Source: a virus
Virus record (IMG/VR): IMGVR_UViG_3300009551_000105
Strand: one strand, 5' to 3'
DNA: 28,840 nucleotides
This document shows positions 3,627 through 22,738 of this stretch, piece after piece. The notes under the pieces were generated by a model. That model worked only from the letters and a program-made list of their open reading frames with translations, was not told the DNA's origin and made no database searches. Both the position numbers and the translations under genes were made by a program. Every line of letters starts with the position of its first letter. Position 1 is the stretch's first letter.

Positions 3627-4427
3627 ATGACAAAATTGGACATTAAAGAATTACAAAAAATAATCCGTGAATCAATTTCTGAAGAAATCAAAAAAGAAGG
3701 TTGGGGCACTGTTCGCCGTAGTCGTGGCTGGGATCTTGACGACGATCATTATGAATCTGCTGAAGATTTTGCACCTGATGATGGTGACGTTAAAAAGGAT
3801 CGTGAAACTGGCGAACGTATGGTTTGGTCAGGCGATGAAGGTAAGTGGATTTACGAAGAAGATTGGCAACAAATGAATCTTGCCAAAAGAGCTAAAGAAG
3901 AAGCCGAAGAAGATTTAGATGAAACTGCTTCGATATCGTCTGTAGATGGAAAAAATACAACATTAATGCCAGAATCCCATAAGAGATTTTTGGGCGTAGT
4001 AAAAAATTCATTGAAAGTCAATGAACAAAAGAAAAAATCAGAGAAAAAGCCAATTAAAGAACATCGCAGCAAAAAGACAATGACTTTTGGTCAAATCCCG
4101 CCTGCTGAAGAATTGTTCAAATTAATGAATGGTGAAGAATTTCATTTAAACCTTCAAGGGGAAGGTTCGTTGGCTTTTGAGTATGCAGTTAGATTAAGTC
4201 AAGATCCTTTGGCTGGTTCTCTAGCTCCGGGAAAGGGTATGGAGTCCACATTGCAGGCTCTTGTAAACGCTCCAAGCCCTTCGGAAATACCAGATGAGGA
4301 ATACGAGACCGTACAAAAGATTTTAGACCACTGGTACTCACGTTACGGCGAAGACCATCCAATAGAAGAAGCTGCTTGGTCAATTGCGTCAGATATAATG
4401 GGAGTCTTGGGAATAGAGTGGATTTAA
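3627..4427 (+). CDS. Hypothetical protein with N-terminal amphipathic leader (MTKLDIKELQKIIRESISEEIKKEG); candidate prohead internal/packaged protein
   Basis: Intact 266-aa ORF with ATG start, in the head-gene neighbourhood. The leader resembles those of ORFs 4477, 18628 and 20039. No recognisable catalytic motifs. Confidence 0.5.
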   Translation: MTKLDIKELQKIIRESISEEIKKEGWGTVRRSRGWDLDDDHYESAEDFAPDDGDVKKDRETGERMVWSGDEGKWIYEEDWQQMNLAKRAKEEAEEDLDETASISSVDGKNTTLMPESHKRFLGVVKNSLKVNEQKKKSEKKPIKEHRSKKTMTFGQIPPAEELFKLMNGEEFHLNLQGEGSLAFEYAVRLSQDPLAGSLAPGKGMESTLQALVNAPSPSEIPDEEYETVQKILDHWYSRYGEDHPIEEAAWSIASDIMGVLGIEWI

Positions 4428-4476: not shown

Positions 4477-5043
4477 ATGAAACTAAACAGATTGCAACTA
4501 AAAAGTATTCTTAAAGAATGTGTCAAAGAATTAATAAACGAAGGCGCATTTAATGCTGTCATTAAAGAAAGCTTCAAAGGCCCTGTTGGAAATCAACAAA
4601 ACAATTCCGTGACAAATGAAGGAATATGGAATTCTAACGGAGTAAGACGACCGGCGGCAAATGATTTGCAATCGTTTAATAATAATGCTCCAAGTCAATA
4701 TCCACAACAACAACAACAGCAACAAAGTCAAACACCACAATACGATCATAATGTTGGACAAATGCATCCAAACGCTCGTTTGCAAGAGCTTGCACGAACA
4801 GTAGCACAGAATTCATCTGGCGGTAATCCAAAACACGCAAAAATGATGGAATCAATTTTTGCTGATACTGCTATGACAACATTGCAAAAACAACTTGGTG
4901 CAGGCGATGGCGGCGGCCAAGGAGTTTATGTTGGAGAAGAATATACACCAGAAGCAGAACACGCAGATGTGATGGAATTACAGGCATTAGGAGCAGCTTC
5001 TGGACATTGGGCCAATTTGGCATTCGGAAAATATAACAAATAA
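4477..5043 (+). CDS. Hypothetical protein with similar N-terminal leader (MKLNRLQLKSILKECVKELINEG) and poly-Gln tract
   Basis: 188-aa ORF. (CAA)n-encoded QQQQQQQ at about aa 77-84. Leader similarity to neighbouring ORFs. Confidence 0.5.
   Translation: MKLNRLQLKSILKECVKELINEGAFNAVIKESFKGPVGNQQNNSVTNEGIWNSNGVRRPAANDLQSFNNNAPSQYPQQQQQQQSQTPQYDHNVGQMHPNARLQELARTVAQNSSGGNPKHAKMMESIFADTAMTTLQKQLGAGDGGGQGVYVGEEYTPEAEHADVMELQALGAASGHWANLAFGKYNK
4705..4730 (+). repeat. (CAA)n/(CAG) trinucleotide microsatellite encoding poly-Q
   Basis: Seen directly: ccacaacaacaacaacagcaacaaag. Confidence 0.7.
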
Positions 5044-5620: not shown

Positions 5621-7933
5621 ATGAGTGATCTTTATACAGAAGCACTGAAAAATGCTGAAAAATTACGTGAGATTGCGGAACAAGACGCAAAAAAGCGTAT
5701 AATTGAGGCACTTACTCCTTACATCAAAAAGGTTATTGCTAAAGAAGCTGCTGGTGAGGCAACTGATTTTTATTTTGAACAAGCAGAAGATCTTTCTCAA
5801 CTGCCTGATGAAGATGAAAATAATCCAGTAGCACCAGAAACAGCTACTCAAGGCGCTGCGCCTACTAGCGATCCAACGGCTATTGATCCTGCCACAACTG
5901 ATCCAACTCAAGATTTGAGCGCAGGACCACTTGGCGATCAATCAACAGAAGCTCCAATTGATGCAACTCCAGCACCTGTGACAGCAACGACTGGTCCAGA
6001 TGGAAAAATGAAAATTGGTTTTGATAATCTTACCGTAGATGCTACTTCTGATGAAGTAACAATTACTCCACACGCTGCACCTGCTGCTGAACCTGCTCCA
6101 ACTGCACCAGTTCAAGCCAAGGGCACAACACCAACAACAGGAACCGCTCCTGCACCAACTGCTGCTCCGGCACCAGTACCAGGCGCAGAACAAGCAGTTC
6201 CGCCAGAAGAAGAAGATGAAGATCTTCTAAAGCAACCAGTTGCTAATGAAGCAATTTCTTATTCTGACTATCAAAGAGTTTACAGCAATATTGCTGAAAA
6301 AATAGATCGTGCATTATTTACAGGAAATCTTTCAAATGTGGGTTCTGAAACCCTCAAACAAAGACTTTTTGGCCTTCTTGAAGCTGTAGATACGATGCGT
6401 GACCGTGGCGCCATTTCAAATAAATTAGCAAGAACACAAGAAAATAAACTAGAATTTTTGTTCTTAAAGCTGAAAGAGGCCAATGTGCATAATAGTTACT
6501 TCAAGAACAATAGTGAAAAAGGACCTGAAGACATGAAGACTCTTAAAGAATTTGCAGCACAGCTTTTCGAGGAAGATGAAAATCTTGCCAAAGATTCTGT
6601 TAGCACCGGCGAGACCGGCGTTAAAGTTGACAACGAAAAGACAGAACACGCACAGAAGGTTTCTGGCGTAAGTCCAAAACTTGGTAGCAAAAAAGATATC
6701 AAGGTTGCTGCTGAAGGTAAAGCATCAGAAGCAGATGCCATTTCTGGCTCTGTTGAAGATGATACCCAATGGGCAGATGGTGAACCTGTTGTTAAAGAAA
6801 ATAGCGCAAATGCTAACAAGGATGCAAATCCAGAAGTTAAAAAGGGCGCTGGCGGATTCGGCGATACGGATGAAGAACCAGTTGCAGAACCAATGACCGA
6901 AGAATTTGAAATTGACGAAGCAGAGCTTTCTGAAGCAGTTCGTTCGGTTCGTAAAGAAAGTCTCAAGCGTAAGCTTGCTGCTCTTCGTGAAGAAACGAAG
7001 AAAGACAAAAAGAGCCCGAAAGTTAAAGCTTCCGAGGATTACCCAAACCCAGGTCCAGAAGGCGGAGAAGATCCATCTCACGATCATCTAAAAGAAGGTC
7101 TTGAAGATATGATGGCTGGCGGAGACGCTGATGCAGATGCTGGCTTGGATGGCGCATCTGATGGCGCAGACGAAATGGGCGACATGGATTCAATTGCTGA
7201 CCTAGTTCTCTCAATCGATCTTCCACCAGAAGTCGAAGCAGAGCTTGCTAAGCTTGGTGTAGTTTCTGACGATCTTGATGTTGATGTAAAACTCAATGTC
7301 GGTGGCGAAGAACATGCAGATGCAGACGCAATGGGCGGCGACGATGAAATCGAAATTACCGATGATGGTGATGCAGATGACATTGGTGGTTCTGAAGAAA
7401 AAGACGAAATGCTTGCTGACGATGTTGACGAGTCTGCTGCAATGCCAATGGAAACAAAAATGGAAAATGCATCAGCTAAACACCTTGCACGCAAAGTTCA
7501 AATGCTTGAAAGCAAGCTAACACAAGCAAGCAAATTGCTTGAAGCAAAAGATGGTGAAATGAGTGAGTTGAAAGGCCAATTGTCTGAAACAAACTTGTTC
7601 ACTGCTAAAACAGTATACTACAGTAAGTTCCTTCAAAGAGCACTTACTGAAAAAGCTCTCTCCAAGAAAGTTCTACAACAAATTGTCGAGCACCTTGACA
7701 GAGCAAAGACGATTGCTGAATCGAAAGCAATCTTCACAAGCATCAAGCGCAAGCTTGATGAGCACGCATCTGCTTCCCTTAAATTGGGCGGTTCTTCCTC
7801 AAAGGTGGCCAAACCAGGAAGCGCAAGCCTTACTGAAAGCGTCTCAAGAGACGTCATTTCGGAAGGCATCGATCCTAACTCACAAACACCAATGCGCTGG
7901 CAAATACTTGCTGGTATCAAAAAAGGTGAATGA
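5621..7933 (+). CDS. Large highly acidic coiled-coil protein; putative prohead scaffold/core protein (gp22-like role)
   Basis: 770 aa, extremely D/E/A-rich, with helical N- and C-terminal segments (C-terminal 'LARKVQMLESKLTQASKLLEAKDGEMSELKGQL...'). It lies immediately upstream of the major capsid gene. Initiation region GAAATAGAAAATG is identical to the sheath gene's. The assignment is positional and compositional only. Confidence 0.45.
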   Translation: MSDLYTEALKNAEKLREIAEQDAKKRIIEALTPYIKKVIAKEAAGEATDFYFEQAEDLSQLPDEDENNPVAPETATQGAAPTSDPTAIDPATTDPTQDLSAGPLGDQSTEAPIDATPAPVTATTGPDGKMKIGFDNLTVDATSDEVTITPHAAPAAEPAPTAPVQAKGTTPTTGTAPAPTAAPAPVPGAEQAVPPEEEDEDLLKQPVANEAISYSDYQRVYSNIAEKIDRALFTGNLSNVGSETLKQRLFGLLEAVDTMRDRGAISNKLARTQENKLEFLFLKLKEANVHNSYFKNNSEKGPEDMKTLKEFAAQLFEEDENLAKDSVSTGETGVKVDNEKTEHAQKVSGVSPKLGSKKDIKVAAEGKASEADAISGSVEDDTQWADGEPVVKENSANANKDANPEVKKGAGGFGDTDEEPVAEPMTEEFEIDEAELSEAVRSVRKESLKRKLAALREETKKDKKSPKVKASEDYPNPGPEGGEDPSHDHLKEGLEDMMAGGDADADAGLDGASDGADEMGDMDSIADLVLSIDLPPEVEAELAKLGVVSDDLDVDVKLNVGGEEHADADAMGGDDEIEITDDGDADDIGGSEEKDEMLADDVDESAAMPMETKMENASAKHLARKVQMLESKLTQASKLLEAKDGEMSELKGQLSETNLFTAKTVYYSKFLQRALTEKALSKKVLQQIVEHLDRAKTIAESKAIFTSIKRKLDEHASASLKLGGSSSKVAKPGSASLTESVSRDVISEGIDPNSQTPMRWQILAGIKKGE

Positions 7934-7997: not shown

Positions 7998-9920
7998 ATG
8001 AAGACATTTACACTTGCACAATTAGCAGAAGGTACGCACCGCCGTTCACTTGGCGCAGACGCACCACGTCTCGCTAAGAAATGGTCTGCAACTGGTCTTC
8101 TTGAAGGTCTTAAAGGCATGAACCGTGACAATATGTCTCGTCTTCTTGAGAACCAGGCTGCTGAGCTTCTCAAAGAAACGAATGCATTGTCCACTGGTGG
8201 CGCTGCCCTTACTTCAAGCGGTAAAATCGCAGGTTTTACTAACGTCGCATTCCCAATTGTGCGCCGTGTATTCGCAGGTTTAATTGCAAACGAAGTTGTA
8301 TCGGTTCAGCCAATGAGCCTTCCAACCGGATTGCTTTTCTATCTAGATTATACATACGGCTCATCCATTGGTGGCGATGCAGGTACAACTGCTAACCAAT
8401 TCGGAACAACGTCCGTAGTTAACCCATCAACCTACACCAGCCAAGACTCTGTGTACAACAACCCACGTGGTTCAGGTGTACGCTCAGGTTCTCTTGCAAC
8501 TGGCGGTCAATATGACTTGGTAGGTCATGGTTATTCAAAAGTTCACGTACAAAGCCGTTGGCTCTCTGGCTCCACTGACTCGGTCGGTGCATGGGTTTCA
8601 GGTTCCACATGGACGAGCGCAGCAACTGTAGCAGCTTCGGCTGACTTCACGGGCTTCAACGCACGTTATGCAATGTACGATTCAACTGTAGAAGTTGATC
8701 TTGGAAACAACGCACTTGATTACTGCTTCGCCTTCATCAGCGCATCAGAATTCTCGGGCAAGATCAATGGCGCAGACTTGAACAACATCAACCAAATCAG
8801 CTTGACTGGTTTCGGTGGTGTAACAAACTCCTCCATTGAATGGGGTGAGAAGTACCAAGGTGGTCGTGGCGTACTCAATCTCCGCAAGCTAACGCAACGT
8901 GGAAACTGGAACGCTACAGCAGGTCTCTTCACACCAGATCCACTTAACGGCTCACATCTTTTGTTTGTTGTACGTCTTGCTAACGCAGGTACGGCTCCAG
9001 CTCCAAACGGTGCAGTTGGTAACGCAGTAACAGCATCCGCAGCAATTGCAGACGCTCTCTCTGTAAACAGTGATGGTTCAACTCTTACGATCCCAAGCTT
9101 CGAATCTGACTTCGCCGTCGATTCCAGCCCACGTATCCCAGAAGTTGATATCCGTATCGAATCCACAAGCGTAACGGCTCAAACCCGTAAGCTACGTGCT
9201 CGTTGGTCACCAGAAATGGCTCAAGACCTTACGGCCTTCTACTCAATCGACGTAGAAGTTGAATTGACAAACATTCTCTCCGAGATGATCACGCTCGACA
9301 TCGACCGTGAAATCTTGAACGACTTGCTTACCCAAGCAGGTGCAGCAAACTTGTTCTGGTCACGTGCCCCTGGCAAGATCGTCAACAAGTTCACTGGAGC
9401 TGAAGCACTTCACACAAGCACGCTTGCACCAGGCCCAATGGCATTTGTAAACATCCAAGAATGGTATCAAACCCTTCTTGAGACGATTACGGACGTGGCT
9501 AACACCATTCACCGTAAGACGCTTCGTGGTTCAGGTAACTTCATTGTAACGTCACCAGACGTTTGCACAATCCTTGAGCATCTTGTAGCATACAAGCCAT
9601 CCTACCGTGTAGACGCAGATGGTCAAGTACGTGACAACATGGTCATCGGCGCAGAAGCAGTTGGTACGCTTAATAACCGTTACACCATCTACAAAGATCC
9701 ATACTTCCCAAGCAACAAGATCCTTGTTGGTTTGAAGGGTAACACCTTCCTTGAGAGTGGTTATATCTACGCTCCATACGTTCCTCTCATCTTGACTCCG
9801 GTCATCTATGCACAGGAAGACTTCACGCCACGTAAGGGTGTAATGACCCGCTACGGCAAGAAGATGGTTCGTAACGACTTCTACGGAACCGTTACAGTGT
9901 TGGATATGAGTACCATATAG
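7998..9920 (+). CDS. Major capsid protein, T4 gp23-like (HK97 fold with insertion domain)
   Basis: 'VRRVFAGLIANEVVSVQPMSLPTGLLFYLDY' matches T4 gp23 'VRRAIPNLIAFDICGVQPMNSPTGQVFAL'. 'ARWSPEMAQDLTAFYSIDVEVELTNILSEMITLDIDREILNDL' matches 'LKAAYSIELAQDLRAVHGMDADAELSGILATEIMLEINREVVDWI'. 'RGSGNFIVTSPDV' matches 'RGEGNFIIASRNV'. C-terminal 'YIYAPYVPLILTP...TRYG' matches gp23. N-terminal propeptide-like segment ends in 'ELLKE'. Confidence 0.95.
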   Translation: MKTFTLAQLAEGTHRRSLGADAPRLAKKWSATGLLEGLKGMNRDNMSRLLENQAAELLKETNALSTGGAALTSSGKIAGFTNVAFPIVRRVFAGLIANEVVSVQPMSLPTGLLFYLDYTYGSSIGGDAGTTANQFGTTSVVNPSTYTSQDSVYNNPRGSGVRSGSLATGGQYDLVGHGYSKVHVQSRWLSGSTDSVGAWVSGSTWTSAATVAASADFTGFNARYAMYDSTVEVDLGNNALDYCFAFISASEFSGKINGADLNNINQISLTGFGGVTNSSIEWGEKYQGGRGVLNLRKLTQRGNWNATAGLFTPDPLNGSHLLFVVRLANAGTAPAPNGAVGNAVTASAAIADALSVNSDGSTLTIPSFESDFAVDSSPRIPEVDIRIESTSVTAQTRKLRARWSPEMAQDLTAFYSIDVEVELTNILSEMITLDIDREILNDLLTQAGAANLFWSRAPGKIVNKFTGAEALHTSTLAPGPMAFVNIQEWYQTLLETITDVANTIHRKTLRGSGNFIVTSPDVCTILEHLVAYKPSYRVDADGQVRDNMVIGAEAVGTLNNRYTIYKDPYFPSNKILVGLKGNTFLESGYIYAPYVPLILTPVIYAQEDFTPRKGVMTRYGKKMVRNDFYGTVTVLDMSTI

Positions 9921-9955: not shown

Positions 9956-9984
9956 GGCCAGATGCAAATCTGGCCTTTTTCTTT
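9956..9984 (+). terminator. Rho-independent terminator after capsid gene
   Basis: ggccaga-tgcaaa-tctggcc followed by tttttcttt. Confidence 0.8.
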
Positions 9985-10054
9985 ATCTTTTTTGACTTCT
10001 ATGGAATATTTGATTAGGGTATACAAAAGTCTTCTTATGTTTTATTCTTTAGAG

Positions 10055-12062: not shown

Positions 12063-12101
12063 GAATAAAAACACATATTTTTAATCAGAGCTTTAGAACA
12101 A

Positions 12102-12467: not shown

Positions 12468-12515
12468 AACCAAATAGATTATTCTTTTATTCTTTTGAAG
12501 TATTATTTTTAATCT

Positions 12516-12845
12516 ATGACTAAATTTTTTAGATTCAAAAATATTACAGGGCTCAATATAACGCTTCATATCTTTGAAACAATAGAAAAGGCAAAAATGT
12601 GTACTAAAATACACTTAGCTATGAAAAATGCTAAAAGTCTACAGAAACAAAATGCCTGTGAAGAAGAATGCAAAAAACTATATGTAAATAATATGTTGCT
12701 GTCTTCGGACGAAAGTGATATATTTTTTCTTATTTCAAAGGAAAAAGGAAAAAATGCGGACGTAGAATATCTTCAAGTTATTGTCGGAGAAAAATTTGGG
12801 TGGATAATTGTACCATATTGGTTTAAAACAGAGGAAATAAATTAA
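12516..12845 (+). CDS. Paralog family member C; 'KFFRFKN...LHIFETIEKAK', 'DIFFLISKE', 'LQVIVGEKFGWIIVPYWFKTEEIN'
   Basis: Family motifs. Confidence 0.6.
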   Translation: MTKFFRFKNITGLNITLHIFETIEKAKMCTKIHLAMKNAKSLQKQNACEEECKKLYVNNMLLSSDESDIFFLISKEKGKNADVEYLQVIVGEKFGWIIVPYWFKTEEIN

Positions 12846-12846
12846 G

Positions 12847-13152
12847 ATGTTTTATAGAGCTACAAAATATCCATATATTTTCATTTATGAAACAAAAGCT
12901 ATTGCAACTTCAGCCAGTAAAGACCTGGGTCCACGTTTTGGTGATGAACATGATAATGTTTTAAAAATTGCAGAACGATGGTCTCAAAAGTTGGGTTCGA
13001 AAGTTCTTTATTCCAATCCTGGTGATATGATCTTTTGTGTTTCAAAAGATGGTTTTGATGAATATTCAGAGATATGGAATGTGATTATTAACGATAAAAT
13101 TGGATGGATTTTGCTTTCTGGTTGGTGCAAGATAGGATTGGTTCAGGTTTAA
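12847..13152 (+). CDS. Paralog family member D; 'MFYRATKYPYIFIYETKAIA', 'WNVIINDKIGWILLSGWCK'
   Basis: Family motifs; 1-nt spacing to neighbours. Confidence 0.6.
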   Translation: MFYRATKYPYIFIYETKAIATSASKDLGPRFGDEHDNVLKIAERWSQKLGSKVLYSNPGDMIFCVSKDGFDEYSEIWNVIINDKIGWILLSGWCKIGLVQV

Positions 13153-13153
13153 A

Positions 13154-13486
13154 ATGTTTTATAGAACCAAAAAAGAACTTTATGTATTTCTTTATGAAAC
13201 AAAAGAAGATGCATTACACGCACAAGAAAATTGGTCTCATGCAGTAGCGGCTCAAACAGTTGTCTATTCGGAAGCCTGGGTTATTGAGGCGGCAAAATAT
13301 TGGTCACAAAAATTAAAAAAGAGAGTAACGTATTCAAAACCAAATGATATATTTTTTCTTATATCAGAAGAAGATGCAAAGAACAACAATAATCAGGATC
13401 TTAAAATCATGAATTTTATTGTTGGGGACAAGTACGGTTGGGTAGCAGCTCCTTCTTGGTTGAAGATGGAGGAAATAAATGAGTAA
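13154..13486 (+). CDS. Paralog family member E; 'MFYRTKKELYVFLYETKEDA', 'DIFFLISEED', 'NFIVGDKYGWVAAPSWLKMEEINE'
   Basis: Family motifs. Confidence 0.6.
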   Translation: MFYRTKKELYVFLYETKEDALHAQENWSHAVAAQTVVYSEAWVIEAAKYWSQKLKKRVTYSKPNDIFFLISEEDAKNNNNQDLKIMNFIVGDKYGWVAAPSWLKMEEINE

Positions 13487-13784
13487 TTTATATCGTGCCC
13501 CAAAAGATACTCCAATGCTTTTACTTTATGAGACCGTTGAAATGGCACATAAGGTTGCGTTACCAAATGGTCCGACGGAAGATGAAACATATTTTTTATC
13601 AAAATTTTGGTCAATAGACACTAAAACCAAAGTTCTATGTTCCAATCCATCCGACATATTTTTTCTTCTTGACAAAGAAATAGATGGAAAATGTGAATAT
13701 TGGAATGTTTTGGTAGGAGAGAAAATCTGGTGGCTATGCGTTCCTTTATGGACTAAAATGGAACAAGTTATTATTACAAAATAG
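13479..13784 (+). CDS. Paralog family member F; 'SNLYRAPKDTPMLLLYETVEMA', 'DIFFLLDKE', 'WNVLVGEKIWWLCVPLWTKMEQV'
   Basis: Family motifs; 8-nt overlap with E. Confidence 0.6.
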   Translation: MSNLYRAPKDTPMLLLYETVEMAHKVALPNGPTEDETYFLSKFWSIDTKTKVLCSNPSDIFFLLDKEIDGKCEYWNVLVGEKIWWLCVPLWTKMEQVIITK

Positions 13785-15742: not shown

Positions 15743-16627
15743 TCAAGCTTTGAGAATTTTTGCGTAAGCTTTTGAAACATTCTCGCTAATGAATAGTGAG
15801 TTAAATTCAACAGCTTCTTCAACGCTATCAAGACCTTGTTCTTGTTCCAAGGGTTGTTCGTTTGTTTCTTCTGGTTGCTCAACTGGATATTGTCCATGGG
15901 CTTCCATATCTGGCTCAGCAGTTGCTTTCCAGATATACCAAGTAATAGCCTGAACTGCTTGCGGAGAAAGACCAACAAGATCGGCAACTTTTCTATAATC
16001 ATGAATCATAGCCGCACGTTCATTTTTATTTGGAGAAGCCATGTTTTTCAAAGGTTTCTTTTCGCCACGCCAAATGTTAATAGCGTGACCATCCAATACG
16101 ACATCGTGAGAAATTTTCTCTGGTTCAAGTAATGATTGGAAAAACACGGTCACTTTTGGACCTTTTACATAGCTTACATCACCAGTTTTGAGAATACTGT
16201 TAGCTTTAGCCACGTTTGCTTTGTAGGCAGGGACTTTTCTCCAAAACTTGAATTTTTTGTCGCCGTTTTTTCTTTTCCAGTTGTCCATTACTCTTTTTGC
16301 CGCCAAAAGATTTAATTTCCAGGATAAATTCGGACTTAAAACCGCTACTACAGCAGCGGCTACTGGTTTTGGAACATCATAAATTTTCGCGAGTTCATCA
16401 ATATGTCTTGTAGCGTGTTGATACCAAAATCCCCAATAGTCTATTTCTTCTTTTGTGGCTTTCTTTAGAATGGAAAGAATATTATGAAAACCTTCATTTT
16501 TGAATAAATTCAACTTTGAAACAGGGATTTTTCCTCTTTTTGGTTCGTCAACTATATGACTAATATCAGCTTCAGGGCCACTATCTTGTTCTAGAAGAAA
16601 GTTTAAAAATTTATCCAAATGTGACAT
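15743..16627 (-). CDS. Hypothetical protein (294 aa) on minus strand; stop codon abuts the stop of the convergent 15233-15742 gene
   Basis: Long intact ORF with ATG start. Trp/Lys-rich middle, acidic C-terminus. Confidence 0.5.
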   Translation of the reverse strand: MSHLDKFLNFLLEQDSGPEADISHIVDEPKRGKIPVSKLNLFKNEGFHNILSILKKATKEEIDYWGFWYQHATRHIDELAKIYDVPKPVAAAVVAVLSPNLSWKLNLLAAKRVMDNWKRKNGDKKFKFWRKVPAYKANVAKANSILKTGDVSYVKGPKVTVFFQSLLEPEKISHDVVLDGHAINIWRGEKKPLKNMASPNKNERAAMIHDYRKVADLVGLSPQAVQAITWYIWKATAEPDMEAHGQYPVEQPEETNEQPLEQEQGLDSVEEAVEFNSLFISENVSKAYAKILKA

Positions 16628-16720: not shown

Positions 16721-17104
16721 ATGAAAATTTATCACGGAACTTCCAAATATAATTGGGAAAACAAATACGCAGACAATTCTACCTTGTTTCTAACATCCAA
16801 TCAAGAAGACGCAGCAAACTATGCTTACGAAGCTGCTGCTGATAATGAATATAGCAAATTGAGACCTTTGCCAATCATTGTTTCAATTGATATTGAAAAT
16901 CTTTTAGATAAAGATTTGGAATTCGATCCAGATGATAGCTGCGTACGATCAGTTAGCGATGGTGGACCAAAAGAACCATTGAATGTAAAATCTCTATCTT
17001 GGGAAGATTCTATAAGATATTGTGGTTCATTTTCCATATTTGGAAATATTGAAGCTCTAAAACCTCTTTTTAAGATAGAAAAAATTGGTATTAAAAAGTC
17101 TTGA
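16721..17104 (+). CDS. Hypothetical protein (127 aa) with N-terminal 'IYHGTS' motif
   Basis: ORF with ATG. The YHGT motif is reminiscent of H-Y-E class ADP-ribosyltransferases and Tpt1, but the assignment is weak. Confidence 0.4.
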   Translation: MKIYHGTSKYNWENKYADNSTLFLTSNQEDAANYAYEAAADNEYSKLRPLPIIVSIDIENLLDKDLEFDPDDSCVRSVSDGGPKEPLNVKSLSWEDSIRYCGSFSIFGNIEALKPLFKIEKIGIKKS

Positions 17105-17128
17105 TTTGGAAGACTAATTAAGTTGGCA

Positions 17129-17983
17129 ATGGACCATGCCAAGTTAGATGCCTTATTAGAATATCTTTTAGTTACCGAAATGCCAATTAGGCAATTTAAG
17201 AATGTCGGTAATTGGAATAAAAATTCATCTTTTGGAAATGTTGATAGAAAATTATTAACAAGTCCAAAGGCAGTGGAAAAAATTCATCGTCAGTGGCAGA
17301 AAACTCCATATGATTTTGAAATATTTTTAGTTAACGATCCAAGAGTAAACAAACCAGATTTCAGAGAAGTTGGAATGGTAAATTTGGATTATGTTAGAAC
17401 AAAAATGCGTCTAACTGAAGAAGAATTTCCAAGTCCTAGCTCTGACGCAATTACAATTATTTTCACCAACAATGTTGGCGATGAAAGATATATGGCTTCT
17501 GGGTGGATTTTGGCCCATAGACTTGGACACGCTTTCGCTCGTGGAAACAACGACGTTTCAAAAGAATGGGAAGAATTTACTGCCAACTTAAGAGAAGTTA
17601 TGGCTGATATGCTTGATCAGGTTTATGATTTGCAAGTCTATAAAAGAGACTTTTCAAGAGAAGCAGAAGACATACTCAAATTAGTTGCCCAACAAATAGG
17701 TACGATGAAAAGTGCCAGAGACAACAATTTGAGAAATTGGGGCGAATTTGCATATGAACTTTTTGCACAATATTTGATAACTGGTAAAATTAGATTCAAT
17801 CCTCTGCCAGATAGTTTGGTTACTAAAATTGAAGCTTTTGGTCGCAAGGCTACAAAAAGACCTTTCAGTCCAGAAAATCAAAATATGTACAATAATCATG
17901 ATTTGGAATATTATGCCCAAGGCATGGAAACTATGATAGAAAACGTACTTGATCGTGCGGTCGGTCGCATATTTGTAATGTAA
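17129..17983 (+). CDS. Hypothetical protein; N-terminal 'LDALLEYLLVTEMP' resembles the next ORF's 'LEGLLENLLVSEGPE'
   Basis: The ORF track start at 17123 is TTG; the first ATG is at 17129. Confidence 0.45.
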   Translation: MDHAKLDALLEYLLVTEMPIRQFKNVGNWNKNSSFGNVDRKLLTSPKAVEKIHRQWQKTPYDFEIFLVNDPRVNKPDFREVGMVNLDYVRTKMRLTEEEFPSPSSDAITIIFTNNVGDERYMASGWILAHRLGHAFARGNNDVSKEWEEFTANLREVMADMLDQVYDLQVYKRDFSREAEDILKLVAQQIGTMKSARDNNLRNWGEFAYELFAQYLITGKIRFNPLPDSLVTKIEAFGRKATKRPFSPENQNMYNNHDLEYYAQGMETMIENVLDRAVGRIFVM

Positions 17984-17993
17984 AGAGATTGCT

Positions 17994-18572
17994 ATGTTTG
18001 AAACTGTAAATGAAGATAGTGCTTTTACGCTCGAAGGATTGTTAGAAAATCTCCTAGTATCCGAAGGACCTGAAACTCAAGTCCCCGAAGGAACTTCCAT
18101 TGCTGTCAACGGGGATTACAGTCATCTTCGAATTGAAGTTAGAACAAATACTCCTGAAGGTTTTGAAGGATCGGAATATCAAGCAAACAATCTTGGATTT
18201 TTGGTTTTACACAGAGCCGAAGGAAGTGGACTTTGGGAAATAGATTCGGCCGGGTCATCTAAAAAATTTGGACCTTTGCTTTATGATATTGCTTTGGAAA
18301 TGGTTGTTCAGTATTTGGATGATGTTGGCGTTATCCCAGATAGGGAAAATTTATCATCTGAATCTTCAAATGTTTGGAAGTATTATTATTTCAATAGAAA
18401 AGATGTAATACACGAGCCTCTTCCAAAAAGATTGGTTAGCGACAAAATCAAAAAAGTTTTCAGAAAAGAGCCGTGGTTATCTTGCTATTATTTTAAAAAA
18501 AGAGCTTTGGTTATTTCAAAATTAAAAAGAGTTGGAAAAATTCATTCAGAAGATTATGATTTTTTTGAATGA
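17994..18572 (+). CDS. Hypothetical protein (192 aa)
   Basis: ORF with ATG; N-terminal motif shared with the previous ORF. Confidence 0.45.
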   Translation: MFETVNEDSAFTLEGLLENLLVSEGPETQVPEGTSIAVNGDYSHLRIEVRTNTPEGFEGSEYQANNLGFLVLHRAEGSGLWEIDSAGSSKKFGPLLYDIALEMVVQYLDDVGVIPDRENLSSESSNVWKYYYFNRKDVIHEPLPKRLVSDKIKKVFRKEPWLSCYYFKKRALVISKLKRVGKIHSEDYDFFE

Positions 18573-18627
18573 ATATTGATTTTTAGATCCTCTACTTACA
18601 TAAGATTACGAAAGAAGAACAAATCCG

Positions 18628-19299
18628 ATGACAATGAAAATCAAGAAGAGTGAATTGCAAAAAATGATCCGTGAAGCGATTCTTAAAAACGTTAAGAAAT
18701 ATCTTACCGAACAAGCTGCAACCGGATTGAAGCAAAGAATTGCTGCAAAATCAACTACTGCTGCCAAAGATCAGGTAAGCATTGACAAATTGATGATGGC
18801 ATTGGATGGTATGGAAAAAGGCGGCAAAAAAGCCGTATCTTTTGATGAACTTGTTGCGGTTGCAAAAAAGTCAATTGAAGTTTCAGCACCGCTTGGAAAA
18901 GGTTCGGCACAAGGTCTTGCTCAAAGAGCAACATCAAAAACTGGTGGCGCACCTGTGGTAGCTCCTCCAGCAAATCTTAATCAACCTCGTCAAGAAAGCA
19001 AAAAAAATTCTGGAAAAAAGTTAAAAGAACAGAATGATGATATTGCTGCAAAATTAGATACGATGAGCAATTTACCTGAAGCAGAAGAAGATGAAAAGGC
19101 AATGAAAGAAGCTGTTGGTCATCTTGAATCGTGCATTGTAAAAGTTAGAGAAGTTGCACATATGGCTGACGAAGAAGAAAGAGACGAAGCATCGGCTTTA
19201 TTCGAAACAATTAATAATCTAAAAGCAGAACTTGAAGTTTTGAAGCATCTTGCAGAAGAGCTTAAAATGGAACAATCAAGTGATGAATGGTCTGAATAA
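18628..19299 (+). CDS. Hypothetical protein with N-terminal leader (MTMKIKKSELQKMIREAILKNVKKYLTEQ) and acidic C-terminal helix
   Basis: Leader similar to ORF 3627. Upstream AAGAACAAATCC is shared with ORF 19318. Confidence 0.5.
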   Translation: MTMKIKKSELQKMIREAILKNVKKYLTEQAATGLKQRIAAKSTTAAKDQVSIDKLMMALDGMEKGGKKAVSFDELVAVAKKSIEVSAPLGKGSAQGLAQRATSKTGGAPVVAPPANLNQPRQESKKNSGKKLKEQNDDIAAKLDTMSNLPEAEEDEKAMKEAVGHLESCIVKVREVAHMADEEERDEASALFETINNLKAELEVLKHLAEELKMEQSSDEWSE

Positions 19300-19317
19300 T
19301 ATAAAAGAACAAATACA

Positions 19318-20025
19318 ATGTCAAATATATCAAGAGCTAGATTTCAAAAATTAGCAGGCATTCTCACCGAAGAATCGAAAGAGTCGTTGCAAGAAACCAT
19401 AATGGAAGGGGCTTCAAGACCTTTCGATATGGATGCAAAAGAAATGCTCATAAGATATTGTGCGTGGCTCCGAGCAATTCATATTTGGTTTCACGGAGCA
19501 CATCATACAACTCGTGGAGTTGGATTTTCGGGCGATCATACTGCTCTCTTTGAAAGAATTTACACAGCCGTCCAAGATGAAGTGGATGGAGCTATAGAAA
19601 AAGCAATTGGAATTACTGGCGACCAAGGTTTGGGATGCCCGAAGTTGATTACAAGAGAAGCTTTAACCCTAATCGATCGTTATGGTTCCCCTGCCGAAAT
19701 GGAATCAAAAAATATTGCAAAAGAAGGTCTTAAAATTGAGGAAGACTACATTGCTTTCGTAGAAAGAATGTTTAAAGCTTTTGAAGCAAAAGATATTATG
19801 ACGCTTGGATTAAACGATCAATTGGCAGCATCAGCAAATGCACACGAAACGTTTGTGTACCTTCTTTCTCAAAGAATTAGAAGCACAGAGGACACAGTAA
19901 TGCAAATGGACGATGTTGGGGAAACTTCAACTTTCCATCTTCCAGAATTACCAGCAAACCTGGGTACCGTACCAATGGCACCAGTTAAAGTTCCTAATGC
20001 TGGCGGCAATCCATTTGGAATGTAA
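19318..20025 (+). CDS. Hypothetical protein with leader 'SRARFQKLAGILTEESKESLQE' (paralogous to N-terminus of 21291-21830)
   Basis: ORF with ATG; shared LAG(I/L)L(T/K)E motif. Confidence 0.5.
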   Translation: MSNISRARFQKLAGILTEESKESLQETIMEGASRPFDMDAKEMLIRYCAWLRAIHIWFHGAHHTTRGVGFSGDHTALFERIYTAVQDEVDGAIEKAIGITGDQGLGCPKLITREALTLIDRYGSPAEMESKNIAKEGLKIEEDYIAFVERMFKAFEAKDIMTLGLNDQLAASANAHETFVYLLSQRIRSTEDTVMQMDDVGETSTFHLPELPANLGTVPMAPVKVPNAGGNPFGM

Positions 20026-20038
20026 AACAAGGAAGTAA

Positions 20039-20872
20039 ATGTCCAAAAAAGCTCTTTTAGAGACAATTGAAATTCTTGTAAAAGAAGAAATAGAAAGTCT
20101 CTCTTTAAAAGAGAAGATTAGAAGTTCTACATTTAATTGGAAAGAGTTCAAGGCCCTGCCAGATATTTTTAAAATGAAAGAATATTTGGATGCAACCTTG
20201 GTTTCTTTAAGCGAAACACGTCAAAAAACCGGAAGAGAAGGATCGGCTAGAAAAGTATATCTTCTTTCAAGTGGTAAAGTAATAAAACTTGCTAAAAACA
20301 ATGCTGGCTTGGCTCAAAATGAAGCCGAGGCTTCGGCATCAAAAACACCGGATATAAAGCCGGCAATAGCTAAAGTATTTGATAGCGATCCAAAGTTTTT
20401 TTGGCTTGTTTCCGAATTGGTTAAACCATTAGAAAAAAGCAATATGTATCGAGTTGGACAATTTTTTGGTGGTGATATTTTTCCAACTACTGATTCATTT
20501 GAACAATTTGCTTGGTATGTTTGGGAAAACAAAGGCGATGTTGATAGGTCTTTGATAAAATTTGAACATCAACAAGCTCCTTGGCTATCAAAATATAATC
20601 CAAACATTGGAAAAGATATCAAAAATCCAAAAGTAATAGCAAAACTAAATGAATTTTTCAAATCATTACTCGAGTTTTGTCAAAAAACTGGTTCAAGATA
20701 TGAAGATATCGCTTCAATTTCTTCTTTTGGTATTTCGGCAGAGGGAAATCTTGTAGTTTTGGATTATGGCTTTACGAAAGAAGTTGGACAAAAATATTAT
20801 GATTGGAGAACCCAATCAGATATTGAAGCCGGTGCAAAACAAGGTTATAAAGCAAATCTCAATGCAAAGTAA
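20039..20872 (+). CDS. Atypical protein-kinase-like (RIO/Bud32/Kdo-like) protein with N-terminal leader
   Basis: 'GREGSARKVY' resembles a kinase Gly-loop (cf. RIO 'GKEANVY'). 'KVIKLAK' resembles the VAIK lysine motif. 'GKDIKNPKVI' resembles a catalytic loop (cf. DLKPENIL). 'VVLDYGFTKE' resembles a DFG motif. Confidence 0.45.
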   Translation: MSKKALLETIEILVKEEIESLSLKEKIRSSTFNWKEFKALPDIFKMKEYLDATLVSLSETRQKTGREGSARKVYLLSSGKVIKLAKNNAGLAQNEAEASASKTPDIKPAIAKVFDSDPKFFWLVSELVKPLEKSNMYRVGQFFGGDIFPTTDSFEQFAWYVWENKGDVDRSLIKFEHQQAPWLSKYNPNIGKDIKNPKVIAKLNEFFKSLLEFCQKTGSRYEDIASISSFGISAEGNLVVLDYGFTKEVGQKYYDWRTQSDIEAGAKQGYKANLNAK

Positions 20873-21224
20873 GACGAATTTCCCCATCTTCATCTTTTTG
20901 TAAATCTTTTGACCAACCTTCTGTTATTTCGATAATGAATTTGCAACCAGAAGGAATTGGGTATTCTTCTTTATTATTTGATTTCATTGGAATGGTACAA
21001 ATCAATTTTCCTTCTTTGTCAAAACCAAGAAGTTCTAAATTGAATTTTACATTTCTCATATGAAATAATCTTTCCGGTAAATCATCCGTGAAGAGAAATA
21101 ACAAACCTTCAGAACTTGTAGGTCCAGTTGGATGATGTTGATAACCAAGGGCACGTTCCTTGTCTGTCCGTAAAACTTTTACAGAGCACTCTTTGTTTGC
21201 TATTGTACAGTTCCAGAATGACAT
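20859..21224 (-). CDS. DUF192 (COG1430/UPF0127) family protein
   Basis: 'RTDKERALGYQHHP....EGLLFLF......RLFHMRNVKFNLELLGFDKEGKLICT' plus 'CKFIIEITEGWSKD' fits the DUF192 consensus (..T.eeR.rGLM.R......GMLFvF......FWMkNT.iPLDiiFiD.dG.iv ... yVLE.naGw). Overlaps the convergent kinase-like gene by 14 bp. Confidence 0.6.
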   Translation of the reverse strand: MSFWNCTIANKECSVKVLRTDKERALGYQHHPTGPTSSEGLLFLFTDDLPERLFHMRNVKFNLELLGFDKEGKLICTIPMKSNNKEEYPIPSGCKFIIEITEGWSKDLQKDEDGEIRLTLH

Positions 21225-21290
21225 ATGAGACGTTTATAAATCCTCTATGGATAAATAGACATTTGCAAAATGTAAAAGCCTATAGAGCTT

Positions 21291-21830
21291 TTATTCAACT
21301 TGTGAGTTGATTTCTTTTTTAAGAGCTTCAATAGCTTGCCCAAGACGCTTCAAAAGCATTTCTGCTTTTTTCACACCTTCGACCGATGCTTTTACTTCTC
21401 CCAATTCAAATCCAATATCGTTGATTATAGTTGCGTTGAAACCATCATCTTCGAAGCCAGGTGGCAATCTTTCACCAAATTGCTCTTCATCTTCGTTTCT
21501 TTCGGTTTCTAATTGTTGCGCCGCACGCAAATCTTCTTCATCTTCTCTGGATGGCCAAAGAGATTCGGGCGATTCGTCACCAAATTTTTGTTCAGTAATT
21601 TCTCCGCCTTTTGCTGCCGCAATCATTTTTGGAATATCGAAATTATATTTTTTGGCAAAAGCTCGCACTCCAGGTGCAACTTCATCTGGATGAAAACTTA
21701 CGCCCATAGCGTAATCGGCCAACCATTCATCTACGGTGTTATATTTGTAGTGGCGTTCGTCACCAACTTCAATTTGTTCTTTTAACAGGCCAGCCAATTG
21801 TTTTAGACGATTTGAATTTAAGAATGACAT
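21291..21830 (-). CDS. Hypothetical acidic protein; N-terminus 'MSFLNSNRLKQLAGLLKEQIE' paralogous to ORF 19318 leader
   Basis: The ORF track start at 21878 is TTG and overlaps the upstream gene; the first ATG is at 21830. Confidence 0.45.
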   Translation of the reverse strand: MSFLNSNRLKQLAGLLKEQIEVGDERHYKYNTVDEWLADYAMGVSFHPDEVAPGVRAFAKKYNFDIPKMIAAAKGGEITEQKFGDESPESLWPSREDEEDLRAAQQLETERNEDEEQFGERLPPGFEDDGFNATIINDIGFELGEVKASVEGVKKAEMLLKRLGQAIEALKKEINSQVE

Positions 21831-21855
21831 TGTCCATAAATATAGACCATTCCAA

Positions 21856-22263
21856 TCAAATGTTTTTTCTATTTCCAATTGTCATATGAAAACAGTGTTT
21901 TAAGTCTGGCGGACAATTATATTTTGCCCAAATTGGTAGCCCTAATTCGGAACGAATATTTTCTAAATCTTTACTGTAGCAATTCAGCCAATAGTATGTT
22001 TCGTCATTATAAACCACTGGTTCATATTGAAAATCGATCACTTTACCTTCGTAAAGCTCCCACTTTGTTAAATCTAATGGTTTTTCTTTACGGACTACTG
22101 TAATATGAGGAGCATAGCGTTGCTGATTACATTTGTACCACTTTGGTAAAAGTCCCTTGTAATAAGCAGAAATTTGTGGGTCAACCTCGACATTTACCTT
22201 ATAGTAAGTGTCTGGATCTACGACCGAATATCGTAAAATGCCCTGTGAGCTTATGAGCTGCAT
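21856..22263 (-). CDS. 2H-phosphoesterase-superfamily protein (two H-x-T-x motifs); candidate Acb1-like cyclic-oligonucleotide phosphodiesterase
   Basis: 'APHITVV' and 'HCFHMTIG' are separated by about 73 residues in a ~135-aa protein, as in LigT and Acb1 folds. Start uncertain (TTG at 22278 or ATG at 22263). Confidence 0.45.
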   Translation of the reverse strand: MQLISSQGILRYSVVDPDTYYKVNVEVDPQISAYYKGLLPKWYKCNQQRYAPHITVVRKEKPLDLTKWELYEGKVIDFQYEPVVYNDETYYWLNCYSKDLENIRSELGLPIWAKYNCPPDLKHCFHMTIGNRKNI

Positions 22264-22318
22264 AACGTATAATACCAAATTGGTATAAATTAATAAACCA
22301 TTATGTAAAGTTCATAGG

Positions 22319-22738
22319 ATGAAAAACGAATTTTATTTTTTTATTGACTTATATACTTTTTTATTCGAAAATAAAAACGATGCTATTGAATATAAAACAA
22401 CAGAAAACGATATGGTCTTCTATGATTTAGAAGAGGCAGAGTTTTGGAGTCGTCTGACCGATTATAAAATTTCTATAATAGATGAATTTATTTTATTTCT
22501 TGTATTAGAAAAAGAAGTAGTAACTTCTTCATATGAAATTTGGAAAGTTATTGGTTTGGAAAAAGTTGGTTGGATTGTTGTTGACGAAGAGGTTAAACCT
22601 TATCTAAAATTATTAACAGAGAAAAATAAAGAAAAATTTGTTAATGATAAAGAATACGCAGAATATGAAAAAACTGCTGAATATGCGGAAGCATATAAAG
22701 AGTATGTCGAAAAAAACGAAAAGAACTTTTTGTCGTAA
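22319..22738 (+). CDS. Paralog family member G (remote copy); 'YEIWKVIGLEKVGWIVVDEEVKPY' plus EYA-repeat C-terminal extension
   Basis: Shares the W.VIG.EK.GWIVV motif with the tandem array at 11685-13784. Confidence 0.5.
   Translation: MKNEFYFFIDLYTFLFENKNDAIEYKTTENDMVFYDLEEAEFWSRLTDYKISIIDEFILFLVLEKEVVTSSYEIWKVIGLEKVGWIVVDEEVKPYLKLLTEKNKEKFVNDKEYAEYEKTAEYAEAYKEYVEKNEKNFLS

Follow-up and report, generated by a model that had tools for sequence, protein, structure and literature searches.

Organisation of the locus

The analysed contig is 28,840 bp long and constitutes the entire window. It carries a distant T4-type head module, and its source phage is T4-like and probably huge. The gene for the major capsid protein of the gp23 family (7998..9920, + strand; 640 aa; Pfam Gp23, 5.4e-79) is directly preceded by that for a 770-aa scaffold protein (5621..7933, +), which gave 100 blast matches to the ORF preceding the capsid gene in relatives. 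Upstream of the scaffold gene, the head module encodes a 266-aa protein (3627..4427, +), whose mature part found no match in a family search, and a putative prohead core protein of 188 aa (4477..5043, +). Members of the latter family lie between the protease and scaffold genes in about 40 related loci and share the junction ILAE|G (the bar denotes the predicted cut), to which NFLIE|GEE of T4 gp67 bears a loose likeness. Proteins are named below by the first coordinate of their ORF.

At their N-termini, nine proteins of the window have leaders, which fall into three types (A, B and C); each leader ends in hydrophobic-x-Glu, so that each tag appears to end at the protease consensus site. Type A leaders (ELQKIIRE-like) are present on 3627 (MTKLDIKELQKIIRE15|S, with a second candidate site at ISE19|E), on 4477 (MKLNRLQLKSILKE14|CVKE18|LINE22|G) and on 18628, a 223-aa Ala/Lys/Glu-rich protein (18628..19299, +; MTMKIKKSELQKMIRE16|A, second site LTE28|Q). 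Type B leaders (RxxKLAGILxE) begin 19318, a putative ferritin/Dps-like protein of 235 aa (19318..20025, +; MSNISRARFQKLAGILTE18|E), and 21291, an acidic protein of 179 aa (21291..21830, −; MSFLNSNRLKQLAGLLKE18|Q), which is encoded on the minus strand among leaderless genes and whose likely start is the ATG at 21830 (MSFLNSNRLKQLAGLLKE). Type C leaders (LDxLLExLLVxE) were found on 17129 (17129..17983, +; 284 aa; MDHAKLDALLEYLLVTE17|MPI), on 17994 (17994..18572, +; 192 aa; leader ending in FTLEGLLENLLVSE24|G) and on an additional carrier, the DUF7178 protein 15743 (15743..16627, −; 294 aa; MSHLDKFLNFLLE13|Q, MSHLDKFLNFLLE|Q). In the last of these, the leader precedes the Pfam domain (from residue 46 onwards), and homologues retain the leader (LDRLLSYLLSEQ, FSKLLEFLFEQ, LDQLLESLLNEQ). 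The amphipathic leader of 20039, a protein-kinase-like protein of 277 aa (20039..20872, +; MSKKALLETIEILVKE16|E), is C-like. Support for type C comes only from similarity within the window and from conservation among orthologues.

Inside or beside the block 16721-22278, four proteins have no leader, viz. 16721, a 127-aa YHGTS-domain protein (16721..17104, +; phrog_13493), a DUF192 protein (20859..21224, −; Pfam PF02643, 6e-9), a 2H phosphoesterase-like protein (21856..22263, −; Pfam 2H-SAK, 4e-5, below the curated cut-off; phrog_12204, 4e-15) and 22319. The first-pass annotation had suggested that the block encodes a set of packaged proteins; the block is not cargo throughout, 16721, 20859 and 21856 being leaderless. 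By itself, 16721 is not predicted cargo. Domains similar to it are fused elsewhere to 20039-like and 17129-like domains, and the YHGT protein of one related locus (L167) ends in a type C-like motif. A T4-type late promoter pattern was looked for, and none was seen.

Families of the tagged accessory proteins

The 17129 protein belongs to a large uncharacterised family (273 homologues) with invariant residues H130, R131, H134, E206 and E210. E17, at the leader junction, was invariant in an alignment of 49 sequences. The leader ahead of E17 varies in type (A or C) and in length (10-60 aa), and a few members begin at the junction. In the AF2 model of 17129 (pLDDT 94) the leader forms a helix (residues 3-14) and the domain begins at residue 20; its fold found no match in the PDB.

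The ferritin/Dps-like 19318 matched PHROG 3636 (3.3e-5) and PHROG 858 (1.7e-3), and its homologues are named 'DNA-binding ferritin-like protein' by JGI; its best PDB sequence match, bacterioferritin 3kwo, was weak (E 0.47). Among 38 homologues, about 22 have the leader followed by a variable linker, and about 15 consist of the leaderless core only. As counted from homologue sequences, LAG(I/L)(L/I/V)xE is present in 19 of the 21 tagged ferritin-like proteins. The peptide WPSREDEE is common to 21291 and the N-terminal extension of one ferritin-like homologue (P0023).

For 20039, described in the first-pass annotation as kinase-like, the family alignment showed GxGSSR71, K83, E97, D223 and D242-Y-G to be invariant or nearly so, and E16 at the junction to be at least 90% conserved. 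The top Foldseek matches in the PDB were all of kinase fold (PRPK/Bud32, PknB, APH(2'') and MTR kinase; prob 0.9-0.98, E ~3e-3), with a TM score of only about 0.3 and a model pLDDT of 73. The motif residues were thus confirmed, and a kinase-like fold is predicted with moderate support. The first-pass annotation had suggested a check for disorder or a helix boundary behind the leader. Both AF2 models (17129 and 20039) show the leader as a helix of its own, with the predicted cut in or near a less ordered stretch ahead of the domain.

Similarity, position and modularity of the leaders

All peptides quoted in the first-pass annotation were found at the N-termini of the named ORFs. Its pairings required revision. 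17129 pairs with 17994 (8/12 identical) and 19318 with 21291 (RFQKLAGILTE / RLKQLAGLLKE); the leader of 18628 pairs best with that of 3627 (ELQKMIREAI / ELQKIIRESI; 8/10 identical), and that of 20039 is nearer to the 17129 type than to 18628. When the first 30 residues of each of the 34 proteins in the window were shuffled with their composition preserved, 8/10 identity was reached in 0/300 trials and 8/12 in 4/300.

An HMM of type A, built without any window sequence, gave as its top three matches in the six-frame translated window the N-termini of 4477 (E 8e-7), 18628 (1e-3) and 3627 (0.2). In the same translation, the top two matches of a type B HMM, trained only on scaffold C-termini of relatives, were the N-termini of 19318 and 21291, in that order. 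Short-motif HMMs gave modest E-values (0.019 and 0.15 for type B). A junction-anchored HMM made from leaders of the 17129 family was uninformative and found nothing.

Among the ORFs of related loci (1462 in all), type A gave 82 matches; 79 of these started within the first 15 residues, as against a chance expectation of 5.8%, and two further matches followed a miscalled start. Across about 85 related phage loci, leaders were located almost exclusively at residues 1-13. A degenerate type A regular expression was 36-fold denser at N-termini; in the locus of the huge phage LR756508 it matched 19 of 59 ORFs and nothing elsewhere in those proteins. Type B matches in ORFs of related loci were placed differently (8 N-terminal, 44 C-terminal and 1 internal). 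The likeness between leaders, on which the first-pass annotation was built, therefore goes beyond a Lys/Glu/Leu bias and is conserved in position, as the shuffles and the N-terminal placement of type A show.

The mature parts of the tagged proteins of related loci fall into 31 unrelated clusters, and in related huge phages at least 11-19 tagged ORFs occur in a single stretch of 20-40 kb. Since leaderless homologues exist, the leader is a modular add-on. Identical residues of the B and C leaders mostly use different synonymous codons (codon identity at identical amino acids 2/6, 1/6 and 3/8), which places the conservation at the protein level. Between the leaders of 3627 and 18628, 26 of 30 nucleotides are identical.

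Motif B at the scaffold C-terminus

The most informative fact, missed by the first-pass annotation, is that the scaffold itself ends in motif B. In the window scaffold, the peptide RWQILAGIKKGE (residues 759-770, nt 7895-7930) is a type B motif, with candidate cut sites upstream of it at LTE739|S and ISE748|G. Across the clade, scaffold proteins end in this conserved motif, with a cut site ahead of it (LNE|G...RWAKLAGIVK). The motif was kept in 68 distinct tails, including those of the cultured phages immuto, Mel-JY01 and RM378, and is present in LR756508 as well. A phi-x-E lies at most 16 residues upstream of the tag in 59 of the 68 scaffold-type C-termini, and exactly 5 residues upstream in 46; the residue after the site is small (G/S/A). 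Some accessory proteins carry motif B at their own C-terminus.

Capsid maturation site and prohead protease

In the capsid protein, residues 1-60 are predicted to be a propeptide, with cleavage after L58-K59-E60|T61. The first-pass annotation had likened its ELLKE to the cleavage site of gp23, and the MAFFT alignment agreed: LLKE60|T aligned exactly with FLTE65|A of T4 gp23, and this column is hydrophobic-hydrophobic-x-E in 16/16 family members shown. Cleavage at LLKE60|T is accordingly what the alignment would predict. Single hydrophobic-x-Glu sites weigh little alone, because the tripeptide is common.

Of 80 related loci, 45 encode a gp21-like protease, at a distance of about 4 kb upstream of the capsid gene. 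It is present in immuto, Mel-JY01 and LR756508, and in relatives with 75% capsid protein identity. A search of all 28,840 bp of the contig found no gp21-like (S77) protease, and the 10 kb preceding the capsid gene in the two closest relatives (L002 and L003) likewise contained none.

Function of the leaders

Because unrelated proteins share tags and a T4-type cut site stands at each tag end, the tagged proteins are most likely loaded into the head and then trimmed. We consider it probable, with good confidence, that the leaders are removable prohead-loading tags, best read as a new form of the capsid targeting known from T4. The core of the earlier proposal, capsid-targeting propeptides removed by a gp21-type protease after I/L/V-x-E, was supported by every test run. 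As a whole the proposal is partly supported: the protease is not on this contig, the block is not cargo throughout, and the presence of the proteins in virions, their cleavage and their injection are inferred.

We propose that the short cargo peptide, N-terminal here and sometimes C-terminal in relatives, would tether cargo during assembly, either to the scaffold core or to the gp23-type shell on its inner face. Motif B (R-W/F/L-x-K-L-A-G-I) is the scaffold's own terminal peptide, so cargo bearing it would dock at the site of the scaffold tail. Motifs A and C, as amphipathic helices, probably co-assemble with the core in the manner of the T4 capsid-targeting sequence. Once the shell is closed, a prohead protease of the gp21 family would cleave after hydrophobic-x-Glu, directly behind an N-terminal tag (LAGILTE|E, LLVTE|MPI) or a few residues ahead of a C-terminal one (LNE|GxExxRWAKLAGIVK). 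Cutting would release scaffold fragments, which would exit from the head, and folded cargo (the ferritin/Dps-like and kinase-like proteins, the 17129 family, DUF7178 and others) would remain trapped with the DNA. Trapped cargo may be ejected with the DNA and reach the host at infection. A literature search found no virion proteome for any phage of this clade.

The leaders are short and rich in K, E, L and I, some motif matches have weak E-values, and the junction-anchored HMM of the 17129 family found nothing, all as expected if they were generic Lys/Glu/Leu-rich amphipathic helices with no common function, alike through composition and helical periodicity. This explanation is largely refuted and is highly improbable, since composition-preserving shuffles did not reproduce the identities, matches were almost exclusively N-terminal, the junction between leader and domain has an invariant Glu, and motif B, containing Gly and Trp, recurs at scaffold C-termini. 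Shared nucleic-acid features at the 5' gene ends (boundaries of recombination cassettes, translation-initiation regions or RNA elements), with peptide likeness as a by-product, are barely credible as the cause. Shuffling of accessory genes is known in T4-like phages, and the nucleotide identity between the 3627 and 18628 leaders would fit a leader segment exchanged recently; yet types B and C mostly use different codons for identical amino acids, the same peptide is found at the 3' ends of scaffold genes, and it is kept among phages with as little as 45-60% identity between their capsid proteins.

It is also unlikely, though less so, that the tags are assembly or docking peptides which do not serve cargo retained in the head, in which case neither cleavage nor virion retention need follow; they might act in transient recruitment to the scaffold core, portal or protease, in oligomerisation, or in targeting to another compartment built by the phage, such as a shell of the neighbouring major-vault-protein (MVP) homologue. 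The small tagged proteins between protease and scaffold (the 4477 family and an 81-aa family) do resemble core components rather than cargo, and gp67 and gp68 are core components that T4 degrades. An MVP homologue adjoins the block, but it is itself untagged and is not found in the 80 tag-rich related loci. Moreover, the tags are consistently flanked by the same type of site as the capsid maturation site, and folded enzymes of 20-30 kDa would not get out of the closed shell after the cut, judging from T4 internal proteins and Alt (PMC9958956).

Comparison with known systems

In T4, unrelated internal proteins are loaded by a capsid-targeting sequence of 10-20 residues, which gp21 removes, and Alt undergoes cleavage at both ends (PMC9026906, PMC9958956, PMC5694885, PMC12373910). 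As in IPI-III and Alt, a short N-terminal peptide common to otherwise unrelated proteins occurs here together with a gp23-type shell, the peptide ends in a hydrophobic-x-Glu site like that at which the capsid protein is matured, and the putative cargo genes are variable accessory genes. That both termini of Alt can be propeptides (PMC9026906, PMC9958956, PMC12373910) parallels the tags at either end. Unlike T4 with its one tag type, at least three types are present here; one of them forms the C-terminus of the scaffold itself and occurs at the N- or the C-terminus of putative cargo, and the scale, known here from sequence alone, is much larger. Apart from the loose gp67 likeness noted above, no resemblance to the termini of T4 gp67, gp68 and gp22 was seen in the T4 sequences compared, the gp22 tail (VYAKVASRF) being without motif B.

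The giant phages phiKZ, 201phi2-1 and SPN3US load many proteins into the head, with propeptides cut by a gp21-related protease at x-x-Glu, and paralogues share N-terminal residues (PMC5694885, PMC7411985, PMC10052503). The phage studied here would resemble them as a large phage with many head-loaded proteins bearing propeptides. Their propeptides are mostly longer than 100 residues and have the motif S/A/G-x-E, whereas the present tags have 15-25 residues and L/I/V-x-E; no gp22-like scaffold has been identified in phiKZ-like giants, whereas here a long scaffold bears one of the tags.

The scaffolding protein of P22 has a coat-binding tail at its C-terminus, and in herpesviruses pre-VP22a and UL26 share a C-terminal tail, which attaches to the major capsid protein and is removed by cleavage at the M-site. 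The scaffold tails described above are similar in that a conserved peptide stands at the extreme C-terminus with a protease site just upstream, and a second protein bears the same tail, here putatively for procapsid loading and with putative capsid binding. Unlike those tails, to which it has no sequence relation, the present one is reused on many unrelated proteins and also N-terminally.

A bolder proposal, to which we give slightly less than an even chance, is that RWxKLAGI is a portable shell-docking module: the scaffold would grip the gp23-type shell with it, and a large clade of uncultured phages, including huge phages of 460-500 kb, would have transferred it, beside a protease site, to the N- or C-termini of dozens of unrelated enzymes. 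If so, the module would be a natural cleavable counterpart of the cargo-loading peptides of encapsulins, ferritin-like cargo included; the packaged, possibly injected, proteome of phages of this clade could then be deduced from sequence alone, and foreign proteins could be loaded by means of the tag. In encapsulins, a short terminal peptide sends enzymes into an HK97-fold shell, with ferritin-like proteins as typical cargo (PMC8346489, PMC7925596). The likeness is one of analogy only, as the motifs are unrelated and the present tags appear to be cleaved. The system itself is not an encapsulin: scaffold, sheath and virion structural genes surround its shell gene, which belongs to a true phage head in a DNA-packaging context, and its tags are accompanied by cut sites.

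Gene content and origin of the window

The window (28,840 bp) is an entire metagenomic contig, and its source is a distant T4-like myophage. Its genes include those for a tail sheath protein (517-3516; PHROG 23, 2e-48), an acidic 770-aa protein at the scaffold position (5621-7933) and a gp23-family major capsid protein (MCP; 7998-9920; Pfam Gp23, 5.4e-79), with the small ORFs 3627, 4477 and 5129 (named by first coordinate) between the sheath gene and the scaffold-position gene. The capsid gene is followed, in order, by a GIY-YIG endonuclease, a run of small paralogues, a methyltransferase, a DUF7178 gene (-), the block 16721-22278, a major vault protein (MVP) homologue and more virion proteins. 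Among deposited phages, the nearest capsid proteins are those of LR756508 (uncultured, 484 kb), the Flavobacterium immuto phages, Microcystis phage Mel-JY01 and Rhodothermus phage RM378. Since the 461-kb metagenomic relative L167 (JGI Ga0081520_100001, 460,987 bp) carries an MCP 88% identical to that of the window and the same order of scaffold, capsid, GIY-YIG, DUF7178 (-), ferritin-like and DUF192 (-) genes, the window is probably a piece of a huge (~460 kb) phage genome. At the nucleotide level the block matched none of 50,697 phage records, and the T4-type late promoter signal TATAAATA occurred twice, neither time upstream of the block.

Homing-endonuclease-like genes lie on both sides of the head genes (85-513 and 9962-11035, +), encoding a NUMOD1-domain protein 5' of the sheath gene and the GIY-YIG protein directly 3' of the capsid gene; in T4, segD holds the equivalent position after gene 23. 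The small paralogues, 6 or 7 in tandem and ~100-140 aa each (11685-13784, +), with an extra copy past the block (22319-22738, +), carry an N-terminal strand with (F/L)(L/I)(Y/F)ET and, at the C-terminus, the motif G(D/E)K(I/Y/F)GW(I/V)..P.W.K, and matched no family.

Shared leaders in the window and its relatives

The first-pass annotation had proposed that proteins of the block share N-terminal leaders, and the peptides it quoted were all present at the named ORFs. They fall into three types. Type A (ELQKIIRE-like) is carried by 3627 (MTKLDIKELQKIIRE), 18628 (MTMKIKKSELQKMIRE) and 4477 (MKLNRLQLKSILKE), type B (RxxKLAGILxE) by 19318 (RARFQKLAGILTE) and 21291 (-) (NRLKQLAGLLKE; start at the ATG at 21830), and type C (LDxLLExLLVxE) by 17129 (LDALLEYLLVTE) and 17994 (LEGLLENLLVSE). 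A third type C carrier, the DUF7178 protein (15743-16627, -; LDKFLNFLLE), had been overlooked, and the leader of 20039, LLETIEILVKE, is type C-like. No leader was present on 16721, 20859 (-), 21856 (-) or 22319, four ORFs in or beside the proposed range.

The likeness exceeds what a Lys/Glu/Leu bias alone would give. When all N-terminal 30-mers were shuffled 300 times with their composition preserved, an identity of 8/10 was never reached and 8/12 was reached in 4 of the shuffles. When a type A HMM from which the window sequences had been left out was run on the six-frame translated window, its top three matches were the N-termini of 4477 (8e-7), 18628 (1e-3) and 3627 (0.2). The B and C pairs encode the same residues by mostly different synonymous codons, and therefore the constraint is on the peptide. 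The leaders of 3627 and 18628 are identical at 26/30 nucleotides and could stem from a more recent copying event.

We scanned IMG/VR with the window capsid protein and obtained 80 related loci (capsid identity 53-90%), which, with four deposited phages, gave 1462 ORFs as called in this analysis. The type A HMM had 82 hits among these, 79 of which start within residues 1-15 (chance expectation 5.8%) and 2 more after a miscalled start. The tagged proteins form 31 clusters with unrelated mature parts, and a degenerate type A pattern is 36x denser at N-termini than elsewhere. In the 40 kb around the capsid gene of LR756508, 19/59 ORFs begin with the type A pattern and none has it internally; in L167, A, B or C tags are present on at least 11 ORFs lying no more than 20 kb downstream of the MCP gene. 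Cultured examples come from Flavobacterium phage vB_FspM_immuto, where immuto35A_187 begins MKKQILSEQFRRMQKLAGIITE/S (slash, predicted cut after Glu) and immuto35A_190 begins MKKSQLRQIIKE. Searches of the literature returned no description of the tag motifs, which does not prove absence (the motif strings gave only noise), and no virion proteome of an immuto-like phage.

Motif B is the scaffold C-terminus

Motif B is also the extreme C-terminus of the scaffold protein, conserved throughout the clade. The usual scaffold ends in LNE/GYEAERWAKLAGIVK and that of the window in ISE/GIDPNSQTPMRWQILAGIKKGE, while the cultured relatives end in RWQKLAGIIK (immuto), RMKKLAGIVK (Mel-JY01) and RIKRLAGL (RM378), and LR756508 in a weaker form; the motif was not evident in gp22 of T4 or of cyanophage P-HM2. 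An HMM built solely from 40 distinct scaffold C-termini of relatives was run against the whole window; its first- and second-ranked matches were 19318 (E 0.019) and 21291 (0.15), each at the N-terminus, and the scaffold tail of the window itself came fourth. Motif B likewise ends non-scaffold proteins in relatives (L035_12014, L002_16748), and L041_7954 combines an N-terminal type A leader with a C-terminal motif B. That motif B is the scaffold's own C-terminal peptide suggests that cargo competes for or shares the docking site of the scaffold, which bears on how a T4-type core contacts the shell.

The sole internal motif B was seen at residues 185-194, mid-way in a 341-aa ORF of a relative (L040 16849-17874), as IIHRWGKLAGILTE/KVDPP with the cut site after it; two cargo genes may have fused here, or the ORF may be organised like a polyprotein.

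Predicted cut sites at the tag junctions and the prohead protease

T4-type prohead proteases cut at hydrophobic-x-Glu, and in T4 a Glu-to-Asp change at P1 stops cleavage while loading still occurs. One such site is LIE-9 in gp21, the T4 protease itself (PMC9026906). The proposed capsid site agreed with that of T4: FLTE/A of T4 gp23 aligns exactly with LLKE60/T of the window, in a column kept in all aligned family members; the aligned site of the immuto capsid protein is VSE. N-terminal B tags are directly followed by (I/L/V)-x-E, which fits 19/21 tagged ferritin-like homologues by our count from the sequences. At the C-terminus, 59 of 68 distinct scaffold-type tails have a hydrophobic-x-Glu within 16 residues upstream of the tag, exactly 5 residues upstream in 46/68, with Gly/Ser/Ala after the Glu. 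The 17129 family (273 homologues) has the junction hydrophobic-x-E17/(M/A/T)(P/A)I, its Glu invariant in a 49-sequence alignment, after a type A or C leader of ~10 to 60 residues; a few members start at the junction. An ungapped HMM of these leaders anchored on the junction Glu gave no detections, the leaders being too heterogeneous. In the 20039 family, E16 is conserved in at least 90%. In AF2 models the leader is a separate helix in both 17129 (residues 3-14, with the domain beginning at residue 20; pLDDT 94) and 20039 (residues 3-26, then a low-confidence stretch).

With the annotated immuto protease as query, a gp21-like protease was found ~4 kb upstream of the capsid gene in 45/80 related loci, in the order protease, 4477-like, 5129-like, scaffold, capsid, and these include relatives with 75% identical capsid proteins. 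It was absent from the window contig, not found within reach in L002 or L003, and not found in L024; in protease-profile scans of viral and metagenome contigs, this lineage, including the 461-kb relative, was absent among the matches listed. We therefore infer the protease of this phage from its relatives. In L004-L008 and L088-L091 (~75% capsid identity) the gene directly before the 4477-like one encodes the protease; in the corresponding region of the window (517-5605), and in its two closest relatives L002 and L003, the tail sheath gene and a variable tagged ORF (3627) occupy its place, which points to a rearranged head module in this lineage. The clade proteases (L004-L081, e.g. L040 5503-6114) share an N-terminal MIKE/S site, comparable to LIE-9 of T4 gp21, and a conserved C-terminal helix (SDRIDRILNDIL) that may serve to target the protease itself or be removed by auto-processing.

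A model for cargo packaging and its alternatives

The scaffold-tail logic of P22 and herpesviruses is established. In our model, the tags would tether cargo to the core or shell during assembly, with motif B docking where the scaffold tail does; once the shell closes, the protease would sever all anchors, scaffold fragments would exit, and folded cargo would be kept with the DNA, with ejection possible. The opening part of this model draws on the sequence evidence above; binding, cleavage, retention and ejection are proposed by analogy with T4 (PMC9026906, PMC9958956, PMC12373910), phiKZ-like phages (PMC5694885) and the P22/herpesvirus systems. Compositional chance as the source of the likeness is ruled out by the shuffles, the N-terminal bias of the hits and the conserved scaffold-tail sites, and a nucleic-acid feature is contradicted by the codon usage of identical residues. 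The idea that the tags address the neighbouring MVP homologue is weak and was also set aside, because tags abound in relatives without a vault gene. That the tags serve transient assembly only, or another compartment, is improbable for the set as a whole, although a transient role is likely for small core-like proteins such as the 4477 family.

The packaging model follows the same principle as the T4 capsid-targeting sequence. Unlike T4, however, the clade has several unrelated tag types, one of them identical to the scaffold C-terminal peptide; a tag can be N- or C-terminal, and the cut site is then on the corresponding side; the tags are used very heavily across a large, uncultured, aquatic clade that includes huge phages; and ferritin-like and kinase-like proteins are among the candidate cargo. 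To our knowledge, detailed understanding of how a phage chooses its head-packed proteins is limited to T4, with partial insight for phiKZ-like phages. Packaged, potentially injected proteins are often anti-defence or host-takeover factors, and a recognisable tag with its cut site would allow them to be predicted from metagenomic sequence.

Candidate cargo and neighbouring genes

The earlier description of 20039 as kinase-like was moderately borne out. Its family has a kinase signature (GxGSSR, Lys83, Glu97, Asp223, Asp242-Tyr-Gly), and the top matches of its model in a PDB fold search were all kinase folds (PRPK/Bud32, PknB, APH(2''), MTR kinase; probability 0.9-0.98, TM only ~0.3). ORF 19318 is ferritin/Dps-like (PHROG 3636 and 858; JGI names of homologues); among its 38 homologues, ~22 have a B leader and a variable linker of 10-110 residues and ~15 consist of the core alone. 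ORF 17129 is a member of a widespread 280-aa family in which His130, Arg131, His134, Glu206 and Glu210 are invariant, and a fold search of the PDB with its model found no match. Pfam, PHROG and PDB sequence searches assigned no function to 3627, 4477, 17129, 17994, 18628 or 21291, and 18628, 3627, 17994 and 21291 had no recognisable domain. If delivered to the host, the ferritin/Dps-like, small kinase-like and 17129-family cargo would point to unexplored early-infection biology.

The 127-aa product of 16721-17104 (+; MKIYHGTS..LFLTS..AANYAYE) resembles a domain elsewhere fused to a 20039-like kinase domain (L011 4922-6730) or to a 17129-like domain (P0091), a hint of joint action by 16721, 17129 and 20039. 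Its H-G-T / Y / E pattern recalls ADP-ribosyltransferases, and in L167 (8750-9994) a similar domain has a C-terminal type C-like motif, LDKLLHYLEG.

The 892-aa homologue of the eukaryotic MVP (22837-25515, +; Pfam MVP_shoulder 3.9e-26, Vault_3 4.7e-7) is untagged, and none of the 80 related loci contains it. Preprints have reported MVP homologues in viruses and bacteria (bioRxiv 2023.11.10.566534; 872010). Among deposited phages, it matched only three uncultured huge phages, LR756500 (462 kb) and LR756501 and LR756503 (735 kb), at 37-38% identity over 95%.
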